This document shows positions 6,395-55,487 of a DNA stretch of 57,303 nucleotides, in pieces. How positions within the stretch are numbered: the stretch's first letter is position 1; each line of letters starts with the position of its first letter. The position numbers and the translations under genes are program-made. Source of the DNA: an uncultured Dehalococcoidia bacterium (GTDB taxonomy: Bacteria > Chloroflexota > Dehalococcoidia > UBA2247 > RBG-13-53-26); contig CAZTYW010000005.1 of the NCBI GenBank assembly GCA_964617695.1, forward strand, positions 1-57,303, in the 5' to 3' direction. The notes under the pieces were generated by a model that saw only the letters and a list, made by a program, of their open reading frames with translations, was not told where the DNA came from and searched no databases.

Positions 6395-7351
6395 TCAATC
6401 GATGTCTCGTTCTCCGGGTGGGGCTGGGTTGACGTAGTCTACCAGCAATTCCTGGGGCACCAGCTTCTCAATCTCGTCGATGCTCCATTTTTCGTCAATC
6501 TCCCAGTCCCTGGTGAGTTTTCTCACTATTTGTGGATGGTTCCAGATCCCGATGGTGGCTCTTGAAGTGACGAATACGCAGCCGTTGATGTCAGTGGCGG
6601 CGTCACTTGCCAGGTAGGCTATGAATGGGGCGAAGTACTCCGGGTCTGCGCCCTCCTTCCTTGTCTCATCCATTCCCTTGAGCCGCTCCTCTGATATGAG
6701 CCCAGCCTCGATCCTCTTCTGCAGTCCCGCATCCTGCGCATCGCCGACGCTGAGTCTGGTTCGTGCCCTTGGGGCGAAGGCATTGCAGGTCACCCCGTAT
6801 CTTCCCATCTCCCGGGCGATGTCATAAGTCAGACTAACGATGCCGCCTTTGGCTGCTGCATAGTTGGAATGACCCACAGTCCCGGCGTACGCCTCGGAGG
6901 TGCAGTTTATTATCCTGCCGTATCTCTGCTGCTTCATCTCCACGCAGGCATGCCGGCACAGGTTCCAGGTCCCCTTGAGGTGAACAGCCAGCACCTTGTC
7001 CCATTCATCTTCAGTCATGTTGAAGATCATCCTGGGCCTCAGAATGCCGGCTATGTTGCACAGAATGTCTATTCTGCCGAAGCTATTGACACAGGTCCGG
7101 ATCATGTCTTCGGCAGCGGCAAAGCTGGACACATCCCCGTAGTGGGGGACTGCTTTGACTCCCAGCCTGCGACATTCCTCAACAGTGGCATCCGCAGGTG
7201 AAGCGTCTGCCCCGGACCCGTCCATTGACCCGCCCAGGTCGCAGACCACGATGTTGGCGCCTTCTTCAGCCAGTGCCAGAGCGACAGCCTTGCCGATACC
7301 CCTGCCAGCGCCGGTCACTACGGCATTCCTGCCTCTTAACCTGTCCCCCAA
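6395..7351 (-). CDS. Short-chain dehydrogenase/reductase, copy 3
   Basis: TGAGRGIG and NYAAAK motifs; shares the C-terminal YVNPAPP. Confidence 0.9.
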   Translation of the reverse strand: MGDRLRGRNAVVTGAGRGIGKAVALALAEEGANIVVCDLGGSMDGSGADASPADATVEECRRLGVKAVPHYGDVSSFAAAEDMIRTCVNSFGRIDILCNIAGILRPRMIFNMTEDEWDKVLAVHLKGTWNLCRHACVEMKQQRYGRIINCTSEAYAGTVGHSNYAAAKGGIVSLTYDIAREMGRYGVTCNAFAPRARTRLSVGDAQDAGLQKRIEAGLISEERLKGMDETRKEGADPEYFAPFIAYLASDAATDINGCVFVTSRATIGIWNHPQIVRKLTRDWEIDEKWSIDEIEKLVPQELLVDYVNPAPPGERDID

Positions 7352-7388
7352 ACTTGTACTCTTCCCGGCGTATTCCTATGTGTAGCTT

Positions 7389-7814
7389 CTATTTCGAAGG
7401 CAGGGAAACGACAGCCGTGCCTGGGGTAATCTGTTTGCCCTCAGGATTCTGTACCCAAATCTCGCACTCTACGAGGTTTTCTCCACCCTCGGTATACTTC
7501 TTCGTTACTTTGCCACCCAGCGACAGTTTCTGCCCTGGGAAGGCATTGCCTCGGTACTGCACGCTCATTTTCCGTAGCTCGCCCTTTTCGCCGATCCAAT
7601 CAGTCAGCATCTGCGTCAGGAAGGCCGCCTCGAGCCTGCCGTGAACAATTGGCCCGGGGAATCCCATAGACTGGGCAAAGTCCTTGTCGTAGTGAAGCTC
7701 AAAATAGTCACCTGAAGCACCCGCCCACTGTACCAGAGTCCTCGTCGTGGGCGTCTTCTCCACGGTGGGAATGTCCATACCCTCTTTTACATCTTCGAAG
7801 TACAGTTGAGCCAT
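7389..7814 (-). CDS. MaoC-family (R)-specific enoyl-CoA hydratase/dehydratase, catalytic subunit
   Basis: WAGASGDYFELHYD...IVHG is a variant of the hydratase-2 motif with Asp and His retained. Confidence 0.85.
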   Translation of the reverse strand: MAQLYFEDVKEGMDIPTVEKTPTTRTLVQWAGASGDYFELHYDKDFAQSMGFPGPIVHGRLEAAFLTQMLTDWIGEKGELRKMSVQYRGNAFPGQKLSLGGKVTKKYTEGGENLVECEIWVQNPEGKQITPGTAVVSLPSK

Positions 7815-7832
7815 GTATGCTGTCCTCCTTTG

Positions 7833-8255
7833 TTAGTAGCTCATTATGGTGTTGGTACTTATGGCTACGACTTCACCCTTCTGGTTCTTGTGGGTGGACT
7901 TGTAGATCATGAGGGCTCTCGGCCCTTTATCGCTGGACTTGTCCTGAAGCTCGTAGAACTCGTGAGTGGTGGTAAGTGTGTCACCGGCTCTGAGGGGCCT
8001 TTGGAACTCCCAGTCAGTTCCGGCGGCTACGCTCCGCTTGTAAGGTAGAGGAATACCCAGAAATACTGCTCCACTGCTGATCATTGCTGTGGTGATAAGT
8101 CCCGGTGGGGCGATGCCCTTCCACTTGGGGTTGGGATCACCAACGCAGTCAGTATAGAGATTGATCATGTGCTGATCGATCCCCAGCACCTGTTCTGTCT
8201 TCTTGCCTTGCAGGGCCTTTATCTCATCCACAGATGCGTACTTTAATTCAGCCAT
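7833..8255 (-). CDS. MaoC/FAS1-like hot-dog fold dehydratase partner subunit
   Basis: YTDCVGDPNP...APP and WEFQRPLRAGD motifs. ATG at 8255 with GGAGG RBS. Confidence 0.8.
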   Translation of the reverse strand: MAELKYASVDEIKALQGKKTEQVLGIDQHMINLYTDCVGDPNPKWKGIAPPGLITTAMISSGAVFLGIPLPYKRSVAAGTDWEFQRPLRAGDTLTTTHEFYELQDKSSDKGPRALMIYKSTHKNQKGEVVAISTNTIMSY

Positions 8256-41537: not shown

Positions 41538-41564
41538 TTAGCAGTTTAGGTGGGAGAGTGCTAA
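41538..41564 (+). promoter_or_regulatory. CIRCE element (HrcA operator)
   Basis: TTAGCAGTT-N9-GAGTGCTAA versus consensus TTAGCACTC-N9-GAGTGCTAA, directly before hrcA. Confidence 0.92.
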
Positions 41565-41566
41565 AA

Positions 41567-42598
41567 ATGAGCGCCCAGACTACCGATCTTCCGCAGAGAA
41601 GGGCCACCATCCTGAGAGTTATCGTGGCTGAGCACATAGCTTCGGCTGTTCCGGTGCCGTCGGAGAGCATTGCTCGTGGCTATTCGCTCGGTATCAGCCC
41701 GGCGACCATAAGGCACGAGATGGCGCGCCTGGAGGAGGAGGGCTACATCAACCGCCCGCATACTTCTGCCGGAGGCGTGCCGACCGACAGGGCCTATCGT
41801 TATTACGTGGAATGTCTGGTTCAGGAGTCCAAGATCGGCCGGAAGGACCAGATGGCCATCCGGCGCTTTTTCGAAGAATCGGAGCAAGAGCCTGAAGCTT
41901 GGGCGCGCCTGGCAGTGTCAATCCTCACGGAGAGACTTGAAAGCATCGCCGTGGCTACGGTGCCACGCGCCGCAGTGTGTCGCTTCAGGCACGTGGACCT
42001 GGTAGCGCTTCAGGAGTTGCTGATCCTGCTGGTACTGGTGCTCCAGGAAGGGATGGTCAGGAAGCGGATTCTGGCTCTGAGTCAGGCTATGTCTCAGGAT
42101 GAGCTGACTGCCTCGGCCAACAAGATGAATGCCTCGTATCAGGGCCTGAGCTGCCGGCAGATCGGTGCCAGCGACGTTGACCTGTCTCCGGTTGAGCAGG
42201 GAATCAAGCATACTGTGATGGGTATGATGCAGACGGAGGAGAGACAGCAGAACGAGCAGTTCTATCTTGACGGGTTGCGATACTTGATCAGTCAGGCCGA
42301 GTCCATCAGGGAACGGAGTCTCCTCAGCCTGGTGGAAGCCATTGAGGAGAGGACCTTACTGAGTAACCTGCTGAGGTCCCTGGGCGACATATCGGGGACC
42401 AGGGTCACCATTGGCAACGAGAATCGGGAGGAGGCTCTCCAGGGATGCAGCGTCATCCTGAGCAACTACGGGGTTGATGAGAGGAGGGGGGCCGTGGGTG
42501 TCATCGGGCCCACGCGAATGCCCTATGGCCGCGTCATTCCGACCGTGGACTTTATCTCTTCAGTGTTGAGTGATATGTTCGGCAGGATATATACCTGA
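41567..42598 (+). CDS. hrcA: Heat-inducible transcription repressor HrcA
   Basis: SPATIRHEM..LEEEGY..PHTSAG.VPT...YRYYV and GVIGPTRMPY motifs. Start could be GTG 41558. Confidence 0.96.
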   Translation: MSAQTTDLPQRRATILRVIVAEHIASAVPVPSESIARGYSLGISPATIRHEMARLEEEGYINRPHTSAGGVPTDRAYRYYVECLVQESKIGRKDQMAIRRFFEESEQEPEAWARLAVSILTERLESIAVATVPRAAVCRFRHVDLVALQELLILLVLVLQEGMVRKRILALSQAMSQDELTASANKMNASYQGLSCRQIGASDVDLSPVEQGIKHTVMGMMQTEERQQNEQFYLDGLRYLISQAESIRERSLLSLVEAIEERTLLSNLLRSLGDISGTRVTIGNENREEALQGCSVILSNYGVDERRGAVGVIGPTRMPYGRVIPTVDFISSVLSDMFGRIYT

Positions 42599-42612
42599 AG
42601 TCAGGGGTTGCC

Positions 42613-43239
42613 GTGGAGGACGAACAAGAGAAGGCTGAGGGAAAGCTGGAGACCGAGGCAGGCGAGGCAGATTCGCTGAGACAGGCTCTCGACGAGGAAA
42701 AGGCCAGGGCGGAGAGGTACCTGGATAACTGGCGCCGGGCTGAGGCAGACTTTGACAACTACAAGAAGCGCGTTGAGCAGGAGAAAGCAGACAGCAGCAA
42801 GTTCTCTAACATGGTGGTCATCATGGGCCTGCTGCCCGTGCTCGACGACTTCGAGAGGGCCTTCGATTCGCTCCCGGTCAAGCTGGCCGGGCTGACCTGG
42901 ATCGAGGGCATTCGGCTTATCCACCGCAAGCTCCGGGCCACCCTGGAAGCCAGGGGGCTGATGGAGATCAAGTCTCTCGGCGAACAGTTCGATCCTGCCG
43001 TTCATGAGGCGGTCACGCAGGCAGAGGGGGAGGAGGGGAAGGTCATCGAGGAGCTGCAGAAGGGCTACAAGCTGCATGATCGAGTAATCCGGCCTGCCCT
43101 GGTGGTGGTGGGCAAAGGCATCGAGGAAAAGAAGGGAGCAGAGGAGGTTGCCGAGGAGCAGGAGCCAGTGACGGAGGTGGAGTCCGTAGGGGAGGTGGCC
43201 GAAGAGAAATCCGGCGACGCACCGGACAACGCGGGTTAA
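42613..43239 (+). CDS. grpE: Nucleotide exchange factor GrpE
   Basis: [30 protein letters not shown] and [14 protein letters not shown] motifs. Confidence 0.96.
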
Positions 43240-43253
43240 GGGAGAAGAGAAGT

Positions 43254-45155
43254 ATGGCACGAGCTGTCGGAATCGACCTGGGAACAACTTTTAGCTTGAT
43301 AGCTGCAATGCAGGGCGGTGAGCCTGTGATCATTACTACTGCCGAGGGGGAAAGGCAAATGCCCTCGGTTGTTGCCGTCAGCAAGACGGGTGAGCGTCTT
43401 GTTGGATGGCTGGCGAAGCGGCAGGCGATCACGAATCCTGAGAACACCATCTACAGCATCAAGCGTCTCATGGGGCGCAAGTTCAAAGACGCCACGGTGC
43501 AGGAGGACATCAAGCGGCTACCTTACAAGATTACCGAGGCGCCAAACGGGGACTGCCGCGTGGTGATGGGCGACAAAGAGTACAGCCCGCCTGAGATATC
43601 AGCCATGATACTTCAGAAGCTCAAGGCAGATGCGGAAGACTATCTGGGTGAGCCCGTCACCGATGCCGTAGTCACCGTACCTGCTTACTTCAATGACAGC
43701 CAGCGCCAGGCCACTAAGGATGCCGGCGCCATCGCCGGGCTGAACGTACTGCGCATCATCAACGAGCCAACGGCTTCTTCGCTGGCCTACGGGCTCGACA
43801 AGAAGGATGAGGCCACCGTCGCCGTGTACGACCTCGGTGGTGGCACCTTCGACATTTCTCTTCTCGAGATGGGCGAAGGCACCTTTCAGGTCAAGTCAAC
43901 CAGTGGCGATACTCATCTGGGTGGAGATGACATTGATCAGCGCATCATGGACTGGGTGTGCGATGAGTTCAAGAAGGAGAGCGGCATTGACCTGAAGCAG
44001 GACAGGATGGCCCTGCAGCGGGTGAAGGATGCTGCAGAGAAAACCAAGCGAGAGCTGTCGACCATGCAGCAGACCGAGATAAACCTCCCGTATATCACCG
44101 CCGACGCTTCCGGGCCCAAACATCTCAACATGACACTGACGCGGTCCAAGCTGGAGCAGTTGGTCATGGAGATAGTCGAGAAGAGCATCGGCCCCTGCCG
44201 CCAGGCGTTATCGGATGCCGGGTTGAAGCCGGCGCAGATAAACGAGGTGATCCTGGTGGGCGGTCAGACCAGGATGCCGTTGGTCCAGGACAAGATAGCC
44301 CAGTTCTTTGGCAAGGAGCTGCGCAAGGGGATCAACCCTGACGAAGCTGTGGCCCTGGGGGCAGCCATTCAGGCTGGCGTGCTCAAAGGGGACGTGAGGG
44401 AGGTATTGCTTCTTGATGTCACCCCTCTCACCCTGGGCATTGAGACCCTCGGCGCCGTGGCCACCACGCTCATTCCGCGCAACACCACTATTCCCACCAG
44501 CAAGAGTCAGGTGTTTTCCACTGCGGCTGATAACCAGCCCAGCGTGGAAATCCATGTGCTCCAGGGGGAGCGGCCCATGGCTGGTGACAACAAGACCCTG
44601 GGGCGTTTCATGCTTGACGGCATTCTCCCGGCGCCGCGCGGCCTGCCCCAGATAGAGGTCACATTCGACATCGATGCCAACGGCATCCTCAACGTGAGTG
44701 CCCGGGACAAGGGCACCGGCAGGGAGCAGAAGATAACCATCACCGCCTCGAGTGGCCTGAGCCAGGAGGAGGTTGAGCGTATGAAGCGGGAGGCGGAGGA
44801 GCATGCGGCTGAGGACGCCAGGAAGAAGGAAGACATCGAGACCCGCAATACTGCCGATACGCTGGTCTACACTGCCGAGAAAGTCATACGGGAGCAGGGA
44901 GATAAGGTGCCCGCTGACTTGAAGCAGCAGGCTGAGGGAAAGATCGCCGCTGTCCGGTCGGCGCTGCAGGGGCAGGATACCGAGTACCTGCGCCGCACGG
45001 TTGAGGAGCTTTCCCAGGTTATGCAGCAGATGGGCGCTGCGGTGTACCAGCAGGCAGGGCCACCGCCCGGTGCAGAGGGACAGCCCGGAGGGGAAGGACA
45101 GCCTGGCGGCGAAGGCGGCGAGGGTACGGTAGAAGGCGAGTTTCGGGAAGTGTAG
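43254..45155 (+). CDS. dnaK: Chaperone DnaK
   Basis: [29 protein letters not shown] and [11 protein letters not shown] motifs. Confidence 0.99.
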
Positions 45156-45843: not shown

Positions 45844-47205
45844 ATGACTAGGGTGGAAGTATTGATAATCGGGGCAGGCACAGCGGGCGAGTATGCCGCC
45901 GGCACAGCTAAACAGTTTGTTGACTCTGTAGGCATGATCGAAAAAGGCCCCGTTGGTGGTGAGTGCATCTTCCATGCCTGTATTCCCACCAAGGCACTGG
46001 TCCATGCAGCACGGACATACAAGAAGATGAGAGGTGCCGGCTTTTTCGGGCTACCCACGATCCAAGAAGAGGCAAATTATGCGGATGTGAAAGCCTTCAA
46101 GGACAAAATCGTCAGCGGGATAGGCACGGGCAGAGACCAGAGATGGATCGACCGGGGCATAAAGTTGTTCCGAGGTAGTGCGTATTTTCGGTCTCCAAAT
46201 GAGGTGGCGGTTGCTGATGAAGTTATTCAGGCAGACAAAATCATAGTTGCGACTGGATCTGTGCCAGCGGTACCACCGATACCCGGACTACGGGAGGCAG
46301 GATACATCACCAATATCGAAGCTCTGGATCTAGAAAGTGCACCCGAAAGGCTAGCTATAATCGGAGGCGGACCGATAGGGGTTGAGTTTGCCAACATATT
46401 CGCCGCATTTGGTTCAGAAGTTCATATCTACGAGGCTCTGGATCGAATTCTCGCTGGGGAAGATGAGGAGGTATCACAGGTTGTGGCACAGCTATTTGCC
46501 AAACAGGGCATCTCAGTCTCAACTTCTGTTTTGGTCAGCGAGGTGCGCGCCACAGGTGCCGGCAGATTGGTGATCGCCAAGAGTGCGGATGGTGAAGAGA
46601 GAAGGGAGGAGTATGATCAAATACTCGTGGCTACGGGGAGAAGGCCAGGTCTAGATGATCTCAAACTTGCGGCTGCCGGAATAGAATACACGAGAAAGGG
46701 GATCAGTGTTGACGCCGCCCTACGAACCAACCTGCCACACATATGGGCGGCTGGAGACGTGACAGGAGGATTCCTGTTCACGTATGTCGCCGGTGAGCAA
46801 GGCAAAACCGCTGTGGCAAACGCTGTTGGCGGCAAGCGGACAGAATTGAACTACGAGGTGCTTCCTCGGGCTACATTCTGCGATCCGGAGGTGGCCAGTG
46901 TCGGTCTGACTGAGAAACAGGCGCAGGCCCATGGCTACCAGGTCAAAATTGGCAAGTTCGAGTATGCCAACCTCACGCGGCCTGTTGAGGCGGATGAAAC
47001 GGATGGATTTATCAAGATCGTGGCTGATTCGAGTTCAGGACGAATCTTGGGAGGTCATATAGTGGGGGCTGAGGCGTCAAGTCTGATTCATGAGGTTGCT
47101 GTCGCTATGGCAGGCAAAGTGGCGGCGTCTGACGTAGGAAACATGCTTCATTCGTACCCCACGCTCTCCGAAGGGGTGCGCTACGCTTGTCAGGCTATTG
47201 CATAA
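45844..47205 (+). CDS. Class I pyridine nucleotide-disulfide oxidoreductase (Lpd/MerA-like, no C-terminal Cys pair)
   Basis: GAGTAG, GGECIFHACIP redox disulfide, GGGPIG, AAGD and HSYPTLSE motifs. Confidence 0.9.
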   Translation: MTRVEVLIIGAGTAGEYAAGTAKQFVDSVGMIEKGPVGGECIFHACIPTKALVHAARTYKKMRGAGFFGLPTIQEEANYADVKAFKDKIVSGIGTGRDQRWIDRGIKLFRGSAYFRSPNEVAVADEVIQADKIIVATGSVPAVPPIPGLREAGYITNIEALDLESAPERLAIIGGGPIGVEFANIFAAFGSEVHIYEALDRILAGEDEEVSQVVAQLFAKQGISVSTSVLVSEVRATGAGRLVIAKSADGEERREEYDQILVATGRRPGLDDLKLAAAGIEYTRKGISVDAALRTNLPHIWAAGDVTGGFLFTYVAGEQGKTAVANAVGGKRTELNYEVLPRATFCDPEVASVGLTEKQAQAHGYQVKIGKFEYANLTRPVEADETDGFIKIVADSSSGRILGGHIVGAEASSLIHEVAVAMAGKVAASDVGNMLHSYPTLSEGVRYACQAIA

Positions 47206-47413
47206 GCTAATTGGCTTCAGCCTTGGCCATGCTTGGAAGCCTATATCGTGCATGGCACAAATGAGGCAGCTGCCCCAGTTGGCTACGGAGCGTTGTCTCC
47301 CCTAGCATGGTGTCGCCAAACCCTGCAAGAACTCGAGAAGTGAGAAATCATCAATAGAACGCATGGAGTAGTGCAAACAGGACATTCAACAGGCGTGGCT
47401 CAAGAACGACGTC

Positions 47414-48175
47414 ATGATAAGAGCGTTTCTCTTTGACCTAGACGGTACACTCGTGCAGACGGAGAAGCTGAAGGCTTCATCCTATGCAATTGCCGTCCAG
47501 CGCCTTCTCCGACTCTCGGAGCCTGACGTGAGAGCCATCGAAGCCTATCGGGAAATAGTAGGAGCTTCCAGAGACGTCGCTTCCCGCCATATCATGGAAA
47601 GACTGAAACTGGAGAGTGACCTGCGCCCGCTGATGGAACAGCATCAGGTCTCGGAGCCGTGGGAAGTGCTGACGGCTATGAGGATGGCCATCTACGCAGA
47701 GATGGTGGCTGCCCCGAAGGTTATTCAGGACCACAAGTGGCCCTACACTGTTGATTTGCTCCAGGTCGTCAAGGAGAAGAATTGCCTGACCGCTCTGGTA
47801 ACCATGTCACGAAAAAGAGAGGCGCTGCACGTCCTGGATTCGCTTGGCATCGAAAATTTGCTGGACGTGATAGTCACCGCTGAGGATATCAAACAAGCGA
47901 AGCCCGACCCTGAGCCGTATCTTGTGGCTGCTGCAAAGCTCGGGGTGCTACCTGAAGATTGCCTGGTTCTGGAAGATTCGGTCAACGGAGTCCGGGCAGC
48001 GAAAGCGGCTGGCATGAATGTGGTGGCCATTGCCACTCCTTTCACCAATGCTGGTCTCCATACGGAGGACGTGATAGAGGATGCCTGGATTGTCCACGAA
48101 CCCGAAATGCTGGCTGCAACGGTGAGGCACCGAATTGAGGAACATGAGGGACATCGCTCTGGTGACACCCTGTAG
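47414..48175 (+). CDS. HAD-family phosphatase (beta-phosphoglucomutase-like)
   Basis: FDLDGTLV, KPDPEPY and LEDSVNG motifs. Confidence 0.88.
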   Translation: MIRAFLFDLDGTLVQTEKLKASSYAIAVQRLLRLSEPDVRAIEAYREIVGASRDVASRHIMERLKLESDLRPLMEQHQVSEPWEVLTAMRMAIYAEMVAAPKVIQDHKWPYTVDLLQVVKEKNCLTALVTMSRKREALHVLDSLGIENLLDVIVTAEDIKQAKPDPEPYLVAAAKLGVLPEDCLVLEDSVNGVRAAKAAGMNVVAIATPFTNAGLHTEDVIEDAWIVHEPEMLAATVRHRIEEHEGHRSGDTL

Positions 48176-48399
48176 AGCTTCGGTCTGTCATTAGTCGGGG
48201 TATGGGGCTGGGTTAGCGCCGTTGATTCTCTGTTTCCGTATCAGTCTGAAACGTGGGGCGAAAGAGGTGGTGAGTGATAGAAAATGACATGACGTGAACG
48301 GGTCCACCAAGGCTGCCAAATGCTGAGGACTGCAGTTCGGCTGTCATCGTCAAGTCATCTCGAAAGGAGTTATGTTCGTGGAGTGAACGGAGGAAAAAG

Positions 48400-49815
48400 A
48401 TGGTCGAGACCTACGACCTGGCTATTATTGGTGGCGGCTCGGCTGGGCTGACCGCCGGTGCGTTTGCTGTTCAACTCGGCGCACGTGTTGTCCTGTTGGA
48501 GAAGCATCGCCTGGGCGGCGACTGCACCTGGACTGGCTGTGTGCCAAGCAAAGCGCTGCTCAAAGTGGCCAGAGTAGCCCATCAGACGCGCACCGCGGAC
48601 CGCTACGGCATGAGTCCCAACGAGCCAAAGGTAGACCTGAAATCCGTGATGGGCCACGTCAAATCAGTCATAAGCGAGGTGTACCAGCAAGAATCGCCCG
48701 AAGTGCTGCGTGCTGAAGGGATAAACGTCATCCTCGACACCGCCCGCTTCCTTGATGCCCACACTCTGGCTGTTGGCGATGCCACGCTGAAGGCTGACAA
48801 GGTATTGCTGGCTACCGGCGCGCATCCTTTCATACCCCCCATTGAGGGTCTGGACAGAGTGGACTATTTGACCTATGAGACTATATGGGATCTGGAAGCT
48901 CTGCCCCAACACCTGCTGGTGCTTGGCGCGGGACCGATCGGCTGTGAAATGGCTCAGGCATTCAGCCGGCTCGGTTCACAGGTTACGCTGATAGAAGGCG
49001 AAGAAAGGGTTCTGCCTCGCGAGGAGCCAGAAGCGGCCTTCGTACTAGCTGCAGTTCTTGGTGCCGAAGGCATGGACTTGCGGCTGAGTGCCAAGGCTGA
49101 ACGGGTATGGCAGGATTCAGCCGGAATTCACCTGGTGGCCGGTGGCGACGAGCTGTTGGGCGACTCGCTACTGGTTGCCATTGGCCGCCGCGCTACCGTA
49201 GATAACCTTGGCCTGGAGAAGGCTGGAGTGGCATACGATGCCAAGGGAATCAAGGTGGACCCGCATCTGCGCACCAGCCAGAAGCACATCTATGCCGCCG
49301 GCGACTGCACTGGTGGCTACCAGTTCACCCACTATGCCGGCTGGCAGGGTTTCATGGCCGTGCGCAATGCCCTTCTCCCCGGAGCTTCCAAGGGGGTCAC
49401 CGACCATGTGCCCTGGACGACCTTCACCGACCCAGAAGTAGCTCACGTTGGACTGACCGAGGCGGAAGCCCGAGAGCGGTTTGGCGACTCTGCAACCACA
49501 TGTGACTGGTCCATGAAGCGGGTGGATCGTGCTCAGGCTGAAGGAGATACAGCCGGGTTTGTCAAACTGATTCACAAGACAGACGGAACATTCTTGGGTG
49601 CCACCATCGTTGCCGGCCAGGCCGGAGAGATGGTTCAAGAGTGGGTCTTGGCTTTGGAGCACAGCCTGAAGGTGGGCGACCTCGCCGGCGTCATTCATGT
49701 CTACCCAACCTACTCCACCGCCAGCATGCAGGCTGCTGCTGCCATCCGTGTGAATCAATGGTTGACCAGTAAATCCGGTCGGGCTGTTCGAGGCCTGGCT
49801 TCTCTGATGAGATGA
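48400..49815 (+). CDS. Class I pyridine nucleotide-disulfide oxidoreductase (MerA-like, no C-terminal Cys pair)
   Basis: GGGSAG, GGDCTWTGCVPSK, GAGPIG and HVYPTYS motifs. Confidence 0.9.
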   Translation: MVETYDLAIIGGGSAGLTAGAFAVQLGARVVLLEKHRLGGDCTWTGCVPSKALLKVARVAHQTRTADRYGMSPNEPKVDLKSVMGHVKSVISEVYQQESPEVLRAEGINVILDTARFLDAHTLAVGDATLKADKVLLATGAHPFIPPIEGLDRVDYLTYETIWDLEALPQHLLVLGAGPIGCEMAQAFSRLGSQVTLIEGEERVLPREEPEAAFVLAAVLGAEGMDLRLSAKAERVWQDSAGIHLVAGGDELLGDSLLVAIGRRATVDNLGLEKAGVAYDAKGIKVDPHLRTSQKHIYAAGDCTGGYQFTHYAGWQGFMAVRNALLPGASKGVTDHVPWTTFTDPEVAHVGLTEAEARERFGDSATTCDWSMKRVDRAQAEGDTAGFVKLIHKTDGTFLGATIVAGQAGEMVQEWVLALEHSLKVGDLAGVIHVYPTYSTASMQAAAAIRVNQWLTSKSGRAVRGLASLMR

Positions 49816-49827
49816 AAGGAGAAGATA

Positions 49828-51252
49828 TTGGCGACCTACAGCAGACAGGCAGTTCGGAACCACGTCTTCTATGAGGTCACGCGCAGTCTGTGTCCCGAAT
49901 GTCGACAGGTGATAGATGCCCAGGTGCTCATTCGCGATGGTGCTGTCTATCTGCGCAAGTATTGTCAGAACCATGGCTGGCATGAAGCCCTGTTGTCCTC
50001 TGATGCGGAATGGTACCTGAGCTCGCTCAAGTATAACAAGCCGGGGGCCATCCCCTACGACTTTGCCACGTCGGTCAGAGAGGGCTGTCCCTTCGACTGT
50101 GGCCTATGCCCTGAGCATCAGCAGCACACGTGCATCGGTATTGTTGAGATCACCGGACGATGCAATCTGCGTTGCCCTACCTGTTTTGCAGATGCTGGTG
50201 AAGGTCCCGACGTCAGCCTGCCCCAAGTCCAAAGGATGCTCGCCAGGCTGAGTGAAACAGAGGGCCGTCCGGAAGTCGTGCAGATCAGTGGCGGCGAACC
50301 GACCATTCACCCGCAGTTGCTGGATATCCTGGGTGCTGCCAAGGCGGGAGGCTTTTCCCTGGTGTTGCTCAACACCAACGGGCTACGGCTGGCTGAAGAG
50401 CCCGACTTTGTCCGCCAACTGGCCAGCTACCGGCTAGCTGCATACCTCCAGTTCGATGGGGTCACGGCTCAAACCTACAAGACGCTCCGCGGCCGCGACC
50501 TGCGTGCCATCAAACAGCAGGCACTCGACCGCCTGGCCGAGGCCGGGCTTTATGCCATACTGGTTGCCACCATAGTCAAAGGTGTGAATGACGGCGAGAT
50601 CGGCGACATTCTGCGCTACGGATTAGAACACCCAGTTGTGCTCGGCGTGAACTACCAGCCTGTCACCTATGCTGGCCGCTGTCTGGGTCATCATGACCCG
50701 CTCCACCGCGTCACAGTACCCGACGTGCTTCATGCCCTGGAAGTGCAAACAGAGGGTCTATTCCAGGTCAGCGACTTCCGGCCGCTGCCGTGTCCCCACC
50801 CCAGTTGTTCGGCCTGCACCGTCGCTTTTCTGGATGGGCAACAGGTGATTCCCATCCCACGCGTCATAAATGTGGATGACTATCTGGATTTTCTCACTAA
50901 CAGCGCTGGGCCGGAGGTGTTTGCTGAACTTGCTACATCGCTGGAAGAGCTGTGGAGCATGGCAGCGGTAATGGGCAGCAGCAAAACTATGGATGCCCTG
51001 AACTGCGTCGCCTGCGGCATGGACATGGCGCTTCCCTCCAATCTCAGCCTGTCGCCCGAGAATTTCTTTATCATCCAGGTTCATGGCTTCATGGATGAGC
51101 ATACCTTCGACCTCAAGCGACTGATGAAGTGCTGCGTACACGAGTTCCTACCGGATGGCCGGGCGGTGCCGTTCTGCGCCTATAACAACCTGGGCTACCG
51201 GGAGCGCATGAAGCAAGGGCAGGGGCCGAAAGTTGAACAACAGGACAGATGA
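49828..51252 (+). CDS. Radical SAM enzyme, Tes/GDGT-MAS (MJ0619-like) family
   Basis: N-terminal CPEC...CQNH, CPFDCGLCPEH, CNLRCPTC (CxxxCxxC), SGGEPT, NTNG, YLQFDG, C-terminal CPHPSC, FMD...CCVH and PFCAYN. Confidence 0.9.
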   Translation: MATYSRQAVRNHVFYEVTRSLCPECRQVIDAQVLIRDGAVYLRKYCQNHGWHEALLSSDAEWYLSSLKYNKPGAIPYDFATSVREGCPFDCGLCPEHQQHTCIGIVEITGRCNLRCPTCFADAGEGPDVSLPQVQRMLARLSETEGRPEVVQISGGEPTIHPQLLDILGAAKAGGFSLVLLNTNGLRLAEEPDFVRQLASYRLAAYLQFDGVTAQTYKTLRGRDLRAIKQQALDRLAEAGLYAILVATIVKGVNDGEIGDILRYGLEHPVVLGVNYQPVTYAGRCLGHHDPLHRVTVPDVLHALEVQTEGLFQVSDFRPLPCPHPSCSACTVAFLDGQQVIPIPRVINVDDYLDFLTNSAGPEVFAELATSLEELWSMAAVMGSSKTMDALNCVACGMDMALPSNLSLSPENFFIIQVHGFMDEHTFDLKRLMKCCVHEFLPDGRAVPFCAYNNLGYRERMKQGQGPKVEQQDR

Positions 51253-52030
51253 TCAGCAGATCAACGTCTGCTGCGCCACTTTCTACGAGAGCGACGTCGT
51301 CCGGATACTGCTTGGCGACGTGCTGCACCCCGGTGGCCTGGCGCTGACTCATCGTTTGGGGGAGGTGGTGGGACTGAGTGAGAAGGATCGCGTACTCGAT
51401 GTCGCCTGTGGTCGTGGTGCATCAGCCGTCTACCTCGCACGATCATTTGGCTGCCACGTCACCGGAGTGGATTATGGCCCGCAGAACGTTGCCGCAGCTG
51501 AAGCACACGGGCGCGACCAGCGTATGGCCCAGCTGACCTCTTTCCGACTCGGTGATGCTGAAGGGCTGCCCTTCGACGATGGCACTTTCGACGTGCTGAT
51601 TTCCGAGTGCAGCTTCTGTACTTTCCCAAACAAGAGGATGGCTGCCGCGGAGATGGCACGGGTGCTTTCCACGCGCGGGCGGCTTGGCCTGACCGACATG
51701 ACCGTCAACGGGCCACTGCCTGATGACATCCAGTCTCTTCTGGCCTGGGTTGCCTGTGTGGCTGGAGCTGGAACCCCTTCTGATTACCAGTCGGTGCTTG
51801 AGGGCGCCGGATTTGATGGTGTAGTCGTGGAGGATCACAGGGCCGCTTTGTTGGATATGGTGAATCGAGTGCGCCGCAAGCTGTTGGCTGTAGAGCTGGC
51901 CGCCGGCCTAGGCAAGCTCGACCTGGGGGATATTGACCTCAGCGTGGCCAAGAGCCTAGCACGCCGCGCCCTTGAGCTGATCGAGGGGCGGGTGGCGGGC
52001 TATACACTCATCGCAGCGAAAAAAGTGTGA
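51233..52030 (+). CDS. Class I SAM-dependent methyltransferase with ArsM-like cysteines
   Basis: HPGG, LDVACGRG and GDAEGLPF motifs; Cys motifs VCCA, ISECSFC and WVACVAGA. Overlaps the radical SAM stop. Confidence 0.88.
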   Translation: MNNRTDDQQINVCCATFYESDVVRILLGDVLHPGGLALTHRLGEVVGLSEKDRVLDVACGRGASAVYLARSFGCHVTGVDYGPQNVAAAEAHGRDQRMAQLTSFRLGDAEGLPFDDGTFDVLISECSFCTFPNKRMAAAEMARVLSTRGRLGLTDMTVNGPLPDDIQSLLAWVACVAGAGTPSDYQSVLEGAGFDGVVVEDHRAALLDMVNRVRRKLLAVELAAGLGKLDLGDIDLSVAKSLARRALELIEGRVAGYTLIAAKKV

Positions 52031-52188
52031 GCAGAAGTGGCTCATTTCTCGATTTCGGCTCTAAGATAGCAGGTTTGAAGGTGAGGGTTCTAGGCGAGCA
52101 TGCGTTGGAAATGTTGAAAACGGCCCCCAATGGCAGGCCTGGCTGTCACATTCTGGGTGCATTGCTACGGCGTGGGTGGAAGTCGTTT

Positions 52189-53018
52189 ATGGACAAGGCG
52201 CTGGAAGTTTGGTGGGTGTTGCCGGCTGCCATTGGCATTGCCACCATCGCACTATCCAGCGGCATCAGTGGGGCGCTGTTCTTCAGTCCCTTCTTTCTTT
52301 TGGCAGTGGGCCTTGAGCCCGCTCAGGCGATCGGTGCCGGGCTAATCACTGAATTGTTCGGCACGACCTCCGGCATTTTCAACTATATTCGCCAGCGCGT
52401 TATTGACTACCAGACTGTGCGATTCTTAGCGGCCGCTGCTGTACCTGCTGCCGTTGCTGGAGCATTCCTGGCACACAGAGTCGAGGCGGGGATTCTGCAA
52501 ATCGTTTTCGGGACGGCGCTGCTGGTACTGGCAGCGATAGTCCTATACCATAGCGCCCAGAAGGGCAAGCCCCCGACCGGGAGAATCCTGGATCAGGCAA
52601 GGAACATGACGGTCATCCAGGCCAGCGATGGTAATACATACTCATATCGTACATGCAATCGCTCTATCGGGGTCCCATTGGCTGGCGTAGGTGGGCTGCT
52701 GACCGGGCTGATGACCGCAGGGCTGCCAGAAATCACTACTACCCAGCTTATGCTGCGTTGTCGGATACCACCCCGGGTTGCTGTGGCCACTGCCATCTTT
52801 GTTCTTACCGTGACGGTCTTTTTTGCTGCTGGAGTTCATGCCCTGACTGCTGAACCAGCGTGGTACGTCGTTGTCTGGTCTATACCGGGAGTCATCATAG
52901 GGGCTCAATAGCCCCCAGGCTTGAGGGCAAGGTACCTCCGGCCATTGCAGAGCGGGTTCTGGGAGTCCTTTTCCTTGGCATAGGAGTGCTGGTGGTTGTG
53001 ATGCAGGTTAGAGGCTAG
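52189..53018 (+). pseudogene. TauE/SafE (TSUP) exporter with a 1-bp frameshift near the 3' end
   Basis: SSGISGALFFSP, AVATA and WSIPGVIIGAQ, then TAG at 52909. Shifting frame at 52905-52908 restores IAPRLEGKVPPAIAERVLGVLFLGIGVLVVVMQVRG* ending at 53018. Confidence 0.8.
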
Positions 53019-53289
53019 GTGTGACCGGTTGCCAAAAAGCTTCGCGCATTGCATTGTTCGTAATAGAAATGCACGCAGAGGAGGGGAAGCGGTACAAGAA
53101 TCCATTGAGCTGGCAGTGCCCGCGGCTGTCATGACACAGTCACTGCAGGTGCGGCTCAGGTCCCGGCAGATTCGTCCCTTTAGTGCCAGGCTGCTCGCAG
53201 CCCCGAGAAATCACTTTGGAGGCCATGCTGTGAAGGAGACCAGGTAGCAAACCGTGGCGTGAAGATAGACGAAGTGGAGAGGGGGTGGC

Positions 53290-53619
53290 ATGCTTGCCGT
53301 AGGAATAGCATGGGGTGAAGAGGGTGTACATGCTCTGGAGATTCCGGAGCCAAGAATCGGACAACCAGACGAGGTACTGGTACGGGTCAAGGAGGCGGGT
53401 CTTGATGACACTGACTTCAACATGATCCGCCATAGGTTGCAGGACATCGCCCAGGGTGGCAATGAGATGGCCCTGGGCGACATTGGCAAGATCAATGCTC
53501 GTTTTGATGGCCTGCTGACCGAGATGATAACCCATCGCTACCGTCTGGAAGACTTCCAGCAGGCCTTTGATGGCGGTGACCCAAAGCATATCAAGACTGT
53601 GATCGAAGTGGAAGCTTGA
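53290..53619 (+). pseudogene. Internally deleted zinc-dependent glucose 1-dehydrogenase-like MDR
   Basis: N-terminal EVLVRVKEAGLDDTD...MALG is joined in frame to a C-terminal ITHRYRLEDFQQAF...IKTVIEV. The GHE motif and the whole NAD-binding domain are absent. Confidence 0.75.
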
Positions 53620-53759
53620 TGCAAGGAGTGTATTTGCAGAAAGCGACTCTCGCCTTTCGAGGTGTTGTATGTGCAGGTGGGCGGGTTTTGCCAAGTCAAA
53701 GTTGACCCTCGATTGTTTGAGGACATCGCAGGCTCAGCGTCCCGGGGAGGAGGTAAATC

Positions 53760-54464
53760 ATGCCATCGGATGAGAAGGGGACTGCTTCCCGCTCGCTGGC
53801 GAAGCGGAAAGGCCTATCCACTGCTTCATCTGGCGCTGGCTGGATTGACATATCTACCCCGGTTCGTAATGGGATGGTGCATTGGCCGAGTGACCCGTCA
53901 ATCCAAATCGAGCGCACGAGCGATATGGAGCGCGGAGCTAGTGCCAATGTATCAAGGATTTCAATGGGTTCACACACGGGCACGCACATGGATGCCCCTC
54001 TTCACTTCATCCCTGGGGGCGAAGGCATCGACAATATGTCACTCGATACAACAATAGGGCGAGCCCGCGTGGTTGAGATACAAGATACCCAATCCATCAA
54101 ACCTGAAGAACTCGTCAAGCACCGCATCCGGCGGGGAGAGCGAATACTATTGAAGACGCGCAACTCTCTACGCAACTGGAGCGCTCAGGCTTTCATCGAG
54201 GATTTCGTGTTCGTATCCAAGGAGGCGGCGCATTTCCTGGCAAGGCGCAGAGTCAGACTTGTTGGCGTAGATTACCTCTCCGTCGGAGGCTACAAACGTA
54301 ACGGAGCCGAAATACACCAGATACTGCTCAATGCGGGTGTCTGGATCATAGAGGGTCTCGATCTTTCGGGGGTAGAGCCGGGGAAGTATCATCTCGTTTG
54401 CCTGCCGCTGAAGCTTGTCGATGCGGACGGGGCTCCTGCCCGGGCAGTTCTGAGGCCCATTTGA
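53760..54464 (+). CDS. Cyclase family protein (kynurenine formamidase-like)
   Basis: HTGTHMDAPLHF, GVDYLS, IIEGL and DGAPARAV motifs. Confidence 0.92.
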   Translation: MPSDEKGTASRSLAKRKGLSTASSGAGWIDISTPVRNGMVHWPSDPSIQIERTSDMERGASANVSRISMGSHTGTHMDAPLHFIPGGEGIDNMSLDTTIGRARVVEIQDTQSIKPEELVKHRIRRGERILLKTRNSLRNWSAQAFIEDFVFVSKEAAHFLARRRVRLVGVDYLSVGGYKRNGAEIHQILLNAGVWIIEGLDLSGVEPGKYHLVCLPLKLVDADGAPARAVLRPI

Positions 54465-54500
54465 GCGCATGAAGCAAGAACCGAAGGAGGAGGTGGCCAA

Positions 54501-55487
54501 ATGAAAGAGATCAGGCGAGAGTTCGGCGTAGTGGGTCTGGGGCGTATGGGGGCAAACCTTTCTCTCCAGGCCCTGGAGAAAGGCATGCGAGTAGTTGGTT
54601 TCGACATCAAAGGAGTCCCGGAGGAACTAACAAACGCAGGCATGGTGAGCATCGATAGCCTCAGCGGTTTTCGTGAACAGTTGTCGCCCCCACGACCGAT
54701 TTTAGTCTACATACCGGCCGGACCTATTGTTGACAGGGTCATAGATGACCTCGTCCCACATCTGGAAAGAGGCGATGTTGTTGTAGACAGCGGCAACTCC
54801 TATTGGGGCGACTCCATTCGTCGCTATCGCAGACTTCGGGACAGGCAGCTCCAATTCGTGGACCTAGGAACCAGCGGGGGCGTCGAAGGTGCACGCCACG
54901 GTGCATGCTTTATGGTTGGCGGTGATAGAGAACCTGTTGCCCGTATTGAGCCATTACTGCTGGAGCTTGCCACTCCTGGCGGCTACGTTCATGCTGGACC
55001 GCCCGGTGCCGGACATTTCACGAAGCTTGTCCACAACGGAATCGAGTTCGGAATGCTACAGGCAATTGGCGAGGGCATCGACCTTTTGGAGAAATACAAA
55101 GATACCGTCAACATTCCCGAGGTCCTCAGTTGCTGGCGTCATGGTTCGGTCATTCGTTCATGGTTGATTGACCTGATAGAAGCGGCGTACAGGGCCGAAG
55201 GAGGGCTTGAGAAGATTCCGGCGTATGTTGAGGATACGGGAGAGGTCAACTGGCTGGTAAACGACGCACTACACATGGAGGTGCCAATACCGGTGATTTC
55301 TCAGTCTGTAATGCAGCTTTTTGCCTCTCGCGATGACCGGAAGAACTGGGCTCGAGCCATAGCTATGATGCGCCACGGATTTGGGGGACACCCATACGGC
55401 AGGGACGAGTCTATAGTCCGGGAGCGGCAGGAGGGACGGATTGGCGACTTCCTTCGCAGCGGATTTGAGAAAGACAAACAAGAGTGA
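54501..55487 (+). CDS. gnd: Short-type decarboxylating 6-phosphogluconate dehydrogenase
   Basis: GLGRMG, DSGNS, GTSGG, KLVHNGIEFG and AMMRHGFGGH motifs. Confidence 0.9.
   Translation: MKEIRREFGVVGLGRMGANLSLQALEKGMRVVGFDIKGVPEELTNAGMVSIDSLSGFREQLSPPRPILVYIPAGPIVDRVIDDLVPHLERGDVVVDSGNSYWGDSIRRYRRLRDRQLQFVDLGTSGGVEGARHGACFMVGGDREPVARIEPLLLELATPGGYVHAGPPGAGHFTKLVHNGIEFGMLQAIGEGIDLLEKYKDTVNIPEVLSCWRHGSVIRSWLIDLIEAAYRAEGGLEKIPAYVEDTGEVNWLVNDALHMEVPIPVISQSVMQLFASRDDRKNWARAIAMMRHGFGGHPYGRDESIVRERQEGRIGDFLRSGFEKDKQE

Follow-up and report, generated by a model that had tools for sequence, protein, structure and literature searches.

Does a gene resembling the archaeal tetraether synthase, found in an uncultured bacterium of the Dehalococcoidia (Chloroflexota), serve to make membrane-spanning lipids, or does it encode an enzyme with a different chemistry? 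The gene lies in a window of 57,303 nucleotides, the whole stretch of DNA analysed here (contig CAZTYW010000005.1, positions 1 to 57,303), and encodes an enzyme of the radical S-adenosylmethionine (SAM) type that belongs to the Tes/TrsS superfamily, referred to below as the query. The reference enzyme is GDGT-MAS of M. jannaschii, or Tes (MJ0619; PDB: 7TOL and 7TOM; NCBIfam: NF045702). A first-pass annotation had described the query as a Tes homologue with apparently swapped catalytic residues, and had proposed a retained metal scaffold with a different chemistry or substrate. Our comparisons place the query not among the orthologues of Tes but in a separate clade, to which Tes and TrsS are both paralogous. 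The sequences of this clade are marked by an adjacent or overlapping gene for a cysteine-rich methyltransferase, by frequent linkage to a disulfide reductase, by loss of the residues equivalent to Met439 and Tyr459 of GDGT-MAS, and by two extra invariant cysteines, C322 and C436.

Family models and phylogeny both set the query apart. It scored 362.6 bits against the NCBIfam model for Tes (cut-off 450) and 380.8 bits against that for TrsS (NF045646; cut-off 490), which was its best NCBIfam match; neither cut-off was reached. A six-frame search of the window genome with the Tes model returned the query type at 352.4 bits, compared with 473-522 bits for the Tes proteins of its relatives. A phylogeny of 85 sequences was built with IQ-TREE, using supports from the Shimodaira-Hasegawa-like approximate likelihood ratio test (SH-aLRT), and its clades were anchored by proteins that pass the cut-offs (P0241 and P0249 for Tes; P0164, P0190 and P0220 for TrsS, at 545-607 bits). 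The Tes clade (SH-aLRT 100), the TrsS clade (99) and a clade uniting Tes, TrsS and a few further sequences (97) all exclude the query, which belongs to a Chloroflexota subclade of its own with a support of 100. A union of this subclade with Tes is rejected by the approximately unbiased (AU) test (p=0.0004, delta lnL 79.7). The phylogeny that the first-pass annotation had called for therefore separates the query from Tes.

In fold and cofactor content the query is predicted to be an intact radical SAM metalloenzyme with the four-cofactor architecture and the fold of tetraether synthase. The open reading frame (ORF) is intact, and its product matches the HMPTM/MJ0619-type zinc ribbon (PF23545) and the radical SAM domain (PF04055) in Pfam. 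An AlphaFold2 model (predicted local distance difference test score 85; predicted template modelling score 0.88) was matched by Foldseek over its whole length to 7TOM and 7TOL (E 1e-47, template modelling (TM) score 0.82, 31% identity); the next fold in the PDB was MoaA, which covers only the radical SAM core (TM-score 0.36). Domain order and all four metal sites are shared with GDGT-MAS, as are the cysteines of the C-terminal cluster, C327, C435 and C450. The earlier statement that every metal-site motif of the family is present was thus borne out, the spacing included, and the rubredoxin-like site is invariant in alignments of homologues. A pseudogene or decaying paralogue was considered and rejected, given the intact ORF and the invariance of the ligand motifs in 120 homologues.

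The two signature positions were located by a HMMER alignment to PDB 7tol_A (E 1.2e-83), in which chain numbering is the published numbering plus 20. The C-terminal segment quoted in the first-pass annotation had been read correctly, as nucleotides 51079-51144 translate exactly to VHGFMDEHTFDLKRLMKCCVHE. Within it, V418-H419-G420-FMD of the query lies opposite C458-M459-H460-FMD, and CCVHE lies opposite CCIHY. This puts His419 at the position of Met439 and Glu439 at that of Tyr459, so that Met and Tyr are not conserved in the query and the replacement seen by eye is upheld by the alignment. The swap is no one-off substitution, since His419 is found in all of the 120 closest homologues (65-100% identity) and position 439 is mostly Glu (71) or Gln (45) among them.

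The part of the earlier description that did not survive is the word 'catalytic'. In GDGT-MAS, the C-terminal [4Fe-4S] cluster has Met439 as a labile ligand, and between Tyr459 and the substrate's terminal carbon the distance is 4.2 Å; both residues are fully conserved across 1000 archaeal homologues, and the M439A, Y459F and Y459L variants retain robust activity (Lloyd et al., 2022; PMC9433317). Because these variants stay active, the two residues are signatures of the Tes family and not essential catalytic residues, and their replacement alone is no proof of new chemistry. Both being dispensable in vitro, and neither position being conserved across the clade of the query, the His/Glu swap is a marker of a different clade and is not in itself the cause of a new chemistry. 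The proposal that the scaffold is kept and that chemistry or substrate probably differs stands on other grounds, namely the sub-cut-off Tes score, the phylogeny with its AU test, the coexistence of a true Tes and the methyltransferase partner, the last two of which are described below.

The same columns were compared in 17 Tes, 30 TrsS and 54 methyltransferase-linked sequences. At the Met439 column all 17 Tes and all 30 TrsS sequences have Met, and the methyltransferase-linked sequences have Gln (33), His (10), Lys (8), Thr (2) or Arg (1). The Tyr459 column is Tyr throughout Tes (17 of 17), mostly Val in TrsS, and variable in the methyltransferase-linked set. An acidic residue at position 438 or 439 is absent from Tes (0 of 17), scarce in TrsS (4 of 30) and present in 34 of the 54 methyltransferase-linked sequences. 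C322, C327 and C436 each occur in 54 of 54 members of the methyltransferase-linked clade; in Tes, C322 is found once and C436 nine times among the 17. C435 and C450 are Cys throughout the methyltransferase-linked set, except in one misaligned row (L063) and for an Ala at 450 in L047. The query carries the methyltransferase-linked pattern, with C322, C327, C435, C436, C450 and a polar residue other than Met (His419). The pocket next to the reactive carbon would thereby appear to have turned polar.

True Tes proteins occur close by in the same bacterial family. When the Tes model was searched against the 30 nearest genomes, Tes above the cut-off, at the 473-522 bits given above, was found in 12, all of which belong to the 19 genomes of that family. 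These 12 proteins read xM[QH]FMD...CCLHY, keeping both Met and Tyr, and fall inside the Tes clade of the IQ-TREE phylogeny; at the Tes-proper loci no methyltransferase neighbour was found within 1.5 kb. One relative, G012, is the only one of the 30 with an orthologue of the query (79% identity). It carries both a true Tes and this orthologue, the latter inside a cassette in which the radical SAM gene is preceded by a pyridine-nucleotide disulfide oxidoreductase gene (PNDR1) and followed by the methyltransferase gene. Because both are present in G012, the query type and true Tes can be taken not to be functional substitutes for one another. The family is a candidate producer of Tes-made membrane-spanning lipids, and its Tes was possibly acquired horizontally. 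The loci concerned (L010-L021, in relatives G002-G018) supply Tes above the cut-off in 12 genomes, compared with none of 251 sampled across the phylum. In 11 of the 12 family Tes proteins the first rubredoxin motif is CPED instead of CPEC, a change of Cys to Asp.

The methyltransferase is the constant companion of the query type. In the window, PNDR1, the radical SAM gene and the methyltransferase gene form one tightly packed operon of three genes: PNDR1 leads the cassette and ends 12 nt before the radical SAM gene begins, and the stop of the latter is overlapped by the methyltransferase start by 20 nt. From this arrangement the radical SAM gene is predicted to be translationally coupled to that of the cysteine-rich methyltransferase. 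In a genome-context survey of 79 loci from species-representative genomes, a methyltransferase gene lies directly downstream of the radical SAM gene in 49, among which are almost all of the loci that reach 43% identity or more. The lineages with this linkage comprise Chloroflexota, Acidobacteriota, Actinomycetota (Streptomyces, Kitasatospora, Mycobacterium and Micromonosporaceae), Dormibacterota and Armatimonadota among the bacteria, and Heimdall-, Thor- and Thaumarchaeota among the archaea. Three unrelated contigs with different flanks (L005, L007 and L008) keep the order of reductase, radical SAM and methyltransferase genes, the latter two overlapping by 1-8 nt. In L005-L009, L023 and G012 the gene immediately upstream of the radical SAM gene is a reductase homologue, and the downstream or overlapping methyltransferase recurs in L005-L009 and G012. 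Counted over 53 methyltransferase-linked loci, a PNDR1-type reductase is nearby in about 20, and nothing beyond it recurs broadly around them. A major facilitator superfamily transporter is found in seven acidobacterial and related loci.

The methyltransferase itself has conserved residues at C13-C14, H32-P-G-G, E125-C126-x2-C129 and C175; in an alignment of 23 sequences, H32(PGG), E125-C126 and C175 are invariant, and conservation is 90% or higher at C13-C14 and C129. Its best NCBIfam match is the DVU_1556 family (NF045667) at 133.8 bits, below the cut-off of 155, followed by an ArsM subfamily at 106 bits (cut-off 263) over profile positions 74-240. Foldseek neighbours include sugar O-methyltransferases, phosphoethanolamine N-methyltransferases and the olefin C-methyltransferases TleD and geranyl diphosphate (GPP) C-methyltransferase. 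Since DVU_1556 is the partner family of TrsS, and since a methyltransferase-radical SAM fusion of TrsS type exists in that sister lineage, the partnership looks older than the clade of the query; Tes proper is without it.

Fusions of other kinds also occur in the Tes/TrsS superfamily: Lgt-radical SAM, MobA-like nucleoside triphosphate (NTP) transferase-radical SAM with or without an HD domain, radical SAM-DUF5714, and radical SAM with an AMP-binding domain, in addition to methyltransferase-radical SAM (representatives P0140, P0174, P0189, P0228, P0168, P0233, P0194 and P0177). Taken together, the fusions suggest several distinct, uncharacterised functions in the superfamily. A divergent PlsY-like acyltransferase gene lies directly 3' of the methyltransferase gene in six Dehalococcoidia loci (L024, L026, L030, L047, L070 and L072, at about 7300-8200 in each); this hints, for that lineage only, at a connection to lipids.

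What reaction might such a pair catalyse? We consider it probable that the query is a Tes-fold radical SAM enzyme of a separate clade in which radical C-H functionalisation of a hydrophobic substrate is coupled to methyl transfer. The enzyme would cleave SAM to a 5'-deoxyadenosyl radical and take a hydrogen from a substrate that is hydrophobic and probably lipid-like, at a carbon that is not activated; the hints of a lipid are the hydrophobic substrate pocket of Tes, the Lgt-radical SAM fusion and the PlsY-like neighbours. The substrate radical would be handled at the C-terminal [4Fe-4S] cluster, as in Tes, and this cluster would probably be completed by Cys322 or Cys436, or in this subclade by His419, in place of the labile Met. 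Sulfur or another soft atom, or a methyl group, would then resolve the intermediate instead of a second lipid tail, with the thiol-rich partner methyltransferase installing or transferring the methyl and the disulfide reductase restoring the reduced state of the cysteine pair or persulfide that each turnover uses. A methylated derivative, for example of methylthio type, would be a likelier product than a membrane-spanning lipid. A bolder proposal, which we offer tentatively and think rather unlikely, is that the reductase, radical SAM and methyltransferase genes encode a new kind of two-component radical SAM system. Here the Tes-fold enzyme would use its modified C-terminal cluster to form a C(sp3)-heteroatom (S, Se or As) or C-CH3 bond on the chain of a lipid or hydrocarbon, the methyltransferase would supply the methyl and the reductase would close the redox cycle. 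If this were true, the majority of the 'bacterial Tes homologues' that fall outside the true Tes clade would be signs of a new class of reactions that modify lipids or hydrocarbons, and not of tetraether synthesis.

Several observations weigh against the coupling of radical functionalisation to methyl transfer in a separate clade. The window genome shows only the query type, but at 89.5% completeness it gives no proof that Tes is missing. The 35-sequence, mostly methyltransferase-linked group that contains the query is only moderately supported (SH-aLRT 84), and the linkage may be ancestral and not a trait derived within one clade, given that the base of Tes+TrsS is where two archaeal methyltransferase-linked sequences branch off. 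For the methyltransferase, the best PDB match by sequence is MitM (70.8 bits, against 45.3 bits for ArsM 5evj at rank 7) and no ArsM occurs in the Foldseek top 50; with the sub-cut-off NCBIfam score, these results led us to downgrade a strong 'ArsM-like' label for this enzyme. It is solely the conserved cysteines that suggest a thiol or soft-atom acceptor, and all of the mechanistic steps after SAM cleavage are ones that we infer.

Three other explanations have to be weighed. Were the query a bacterial synthase of membrane-spanning lipids, an option raised in the first-pass annotation, it would couple lipid tails as Tes does and the methyltransferase would only decorate the product, for instance with the methyl branches of penta- and hexamethylated brGDGTs (branched glycerol dialkyl glycerol tetraethers). 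The full Tes fold and cofactor set would fit such a role, as would the occurrence of the clade in Acidobacteriota, which are known brGDGT producers, the PlsY and Lgt associations in the superfamily, and the finding that the differing Met and Tyr are dispensable for Tes activity in vitro (PMC9433317). The option is disfavoured, and we think it unlikely, because many genomes of the same family have a Tes with Met and Tyr in place, which coexists with the query type in G012; known producers of iso-diabolic acid, moreover, are mostly without Tes homologues (PMC13159169). The conserved cysteines of the methyltransferase would be unexpected in a C-methylase of alkyl chains. The clade is also found in Streptomyces, Kitasatospora, Mycobacterium and Micromonosporaceae, none of which is known for membrane-spanning lipids. 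The cysteines might instead belong to an organo-metalloid pathway, in which the Tes-like enzyme would join a carbon radical to thiol-held As(III) or to Se, an ArsM-like methyltransferase would methylate the metalloid, and the reductase would recycle a Cys pair as thioredoxin does for ArsM. Pairs of a radical SAM enzyme and ArsM are known from the making of arsenosugars and of arsinothricin, selenoproteins occur in the sister family TrsS, and the ArsM subfamily is the best named NCBIfam match of the methyltransferase after DVU_1556. In addition, EC126 and WVAC175 lie 49 residues apart, a spacing like that of the two cysteines that bind As(III) in ArsM/AS3MT. Yet the surroundings of the 53 loci show no recurrent ars, sel or other metalloid genes, the ArsM score is far under its cut-off of 263, ArsM ranks seventh by sequence and is outside the 50 top structural neighbours, and the position equivalent to the cysteine of the ArsM GCGNP motif is His (HPGG), all of which makes this pathway very unlikely.

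We would give as little weight to a two-component C-methylase or desaturase-methylase, which could work in either of two ways. The methyltransferase could load a methyl onto a cysteine or cluster sulfide for attack by the substrate radical, a counterpart of the second half-reaction of Tes with CH3 in place of the lipid tail; or the radical SAM enzyme could make an olefin, with the carboxylate at 438/439 as base, which the methyltransferase would C-methylate and the flavoprotein reduce, as in the BfaB/BfaA route to 10-methyl fatty acids. The acidic residue at or beside the Tyr459 position in 34 of 54 members would suit a base, given the distance of 4.2 Å between Tyr459 of Tes and the terminal carbon of its substrate (PMC9433317). 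The olefin C-methyltransferases TleD and GPP C-methyltransferase among the structural neighbours, the linked flavoprotein reductase, and the original annotation of MJ0619 as a radical SAM methylase (Pfam name HMPTM) point the same way. The linked flavoprotein is, however, a CxxxxC disulfide reductase and not of ene-reductase type, the invariant cysteines of the methyltransferase are left unexplained by olefin methylation, and the Dehalococcoidia subclade is without an acidic residue at 438/439.

Comparison with described systems sharpens the placement of the query. It differs from GDGT-MAS in its sub-cut-off score and position outside the clade, in the changes of Met439 to His and Tyr459 to Glu, in the extra C322 and C436, and in having a methyltransferase partner and a linked disulfide reductase. 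TrsS with its DVU_1556-family methyltransferase is closer in organisation, as these two families are the best matches of the query pair and share the partnership of radical SAM enzyme and methyltransferase; unlike them, both members of the query pair fall below the cut-offs (380.8 against 490 and 133.8 against 155 bits), and at the 439-equivalent position all 30 TrsS sequences have Met. Other members of the superfamily carry fused MobA-like NTP-transferase and AMP-binding domains, which are not encoded beside the query gene. TrsS, reportedly described by Haft and Tolstoy in 2025, is listed in a review only as an uncharacterised selenoprotein, and a literature search on DVU1554-1557 found nothing. 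The pairing of C-H activation with SAM-dependent methyl chemistry has parallels, by analogy, in other radical SAM and methyltransferase two-component systems: MiaB/RimO-type methylthiolation, the C10P/C10Q cyclopropanase (cited in PMC13459092), and ArsS/ArsL with ArsM. None of these uses a Tes-fold enzyme, and no homology was detected beyond the radical SAM core. Mss of Thermotoga and Thermoanaerobacter, which we compared by description alone, is likewise a radical SAM enzyme that couples lipid tails, and is only remotely related to Tes (PMC13159169).

These results bear on how bacterial Tes homologues are counted. Branched tetraether lipids underpin widely used palaeotemperature and pH proxies, and matches by BLAST at E<1e-50 have been used to infer their bacterial producers; the activity of these homologues was never confirmed, and surveys take such matches to indicate a potential for making brGDGTs, Chloroflexota being one of the groups richest in them (PMC8941075, PMC11868695). 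At the equivalent threshold from the literature (E<=1e-50 to the Tes model), 28 genomes in an even sample of 251 from the phylum have a match, and in this sample none of the 28 reaches the Tes cut-off. A match to the partner-methyltransferase profile lies directly downstream of the radical SAM gene in 19 of the 28, or 18 of 27 when the window genome is left aside. Because of these two counts, genomic inventories of tetraether producers in Chloroflexota are likely inflated. The label 'Tes homologue' lumps at least two things, true Tes (as in 12 of the 19 genomes of the family) and the methyltransferase-coupled paralogue, and the query gene should not count as a marker of tetraether lipids. The module of reductase, radical SAM and methyltransferase genes is a compact, widely conserved three-gene target for new radical SAM chemistry.

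Features of the cassette and its surroundings are collected in the following table.

Coordinates of the cassette genes, metal-site motifs and adjacent features in the window
Feature	Positions	Strand	Basis
PNDR1, flavoprotein pyridine-nucleotide disulfide oxidoreductase, 471 residues, CxxxxC redox motif	48400..49815	+	Pfam Pyr_redox_2, Pyr_redox_dim
Shine-Dalgarno-like AAGGAGAA, 5' of the TTG codon that opens the radical SAM gene	49816..49823	+	Read from the sequence
Tes/TrsS-superfamily radical SAM enzyme of the methyltransferase-coupled clade, 474 residues	49828..51252	+	PF23545, PF04055
Rubredoxin-like/zinc-ribbon site C22-x2-C25-x20-C46-x2-H49	49891..49974	+	Spacing equals C9X2C12X20C33X2H36 of M. 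jannaschii GDGT-MAS
N-terminal auxiliary [4Fe-4S] motif C87-x3-C91-x2-C94-x2-H97	50086..50118	+	Matches C73/C77/C80 and His of GDGT-MAS
Radical SAM motif C112-x3-C116-x2-C119	50161..50184	+	Sequence motif
C322-x4-C327-x2-C330; C327 lies opposite the one Cys that Tes retains, C322 is extra	50791..50817	+	Alignment
Segment VHGFMDEHTFDLKRLMKCCVHE with His419 (51082-51084), C435/C436 and Glu439 (51142-51144)	51079..51144	+	Translation and alignment
Cys450 (PFC motif), conserved candidate ligand of the C-terminal cluster	51175..51177	+	Alignment
Partner class I SAM methyltransferase, 265 residues	51233..52030	+	Pfam Methyltransf_11/25/31
TauE/SafE (TSUP) membrane transporter	52027..52911	+	PF01925 match from residue 66

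The radical SAM gene begins with a TTG codon 5 nt 3' of a strong ribosome-binding site, AAGGAGAAG. The reductase PNDR1 best matches the NCBIfam model PRK06370.1-3 at 479 bits, below the cut-off of 620; an identity as MerA was rejected, as the score was 373 bits against a cut-off of 454 and the C-terminal sequence has no Cys pair. Beyond the cassette, the radical SAM gene has a second reductase (PNDR0), a haloacid dehalogenase (HAD) hydrolase, TauE and cyclase genes as neighbours. Positions 45844-55487 of the window run PNDR0-HAD-PNDR1-radical SAM-methyltransferase-TauE, with the cyclase and 6-phosphogluconate dehydrogenase (6PGD)-like genes further downstream. In the corresponding locus of G012 (L110; G012:C7:4000-19000), the order is PNDR1-radical SAM-methyltransferase followed by PNDR0, the cyclase and the 6PGD-like gene. 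The cassette thus stands in the same neighbourhood in both genomes and is rearranged relative to PNDR0. The HAD hydrolase and TauE were rejected as members of the cassette, both being missing from that of G012 and from other loci. The listed GTG start of TauE overlaps the methyltransferase stop (GTGA); because the Pfam domain begins only at residue 66 and in-frame Met codons lie at about residues 29 and 55, its true start may be further downstream and the extent of its coupling is uncertain. An antisense ORF of 271 residues at 49168-49983 (minus strand) overlaps the end of PNDR1 and the start of the radical SAM gene, and is most likely spurious, the DNA being GC-rich. An hrcA-grpE-dnaK heat-shock operon, unrelated to the cassette, occupies 41558-45155 upstream of it and on its strand.

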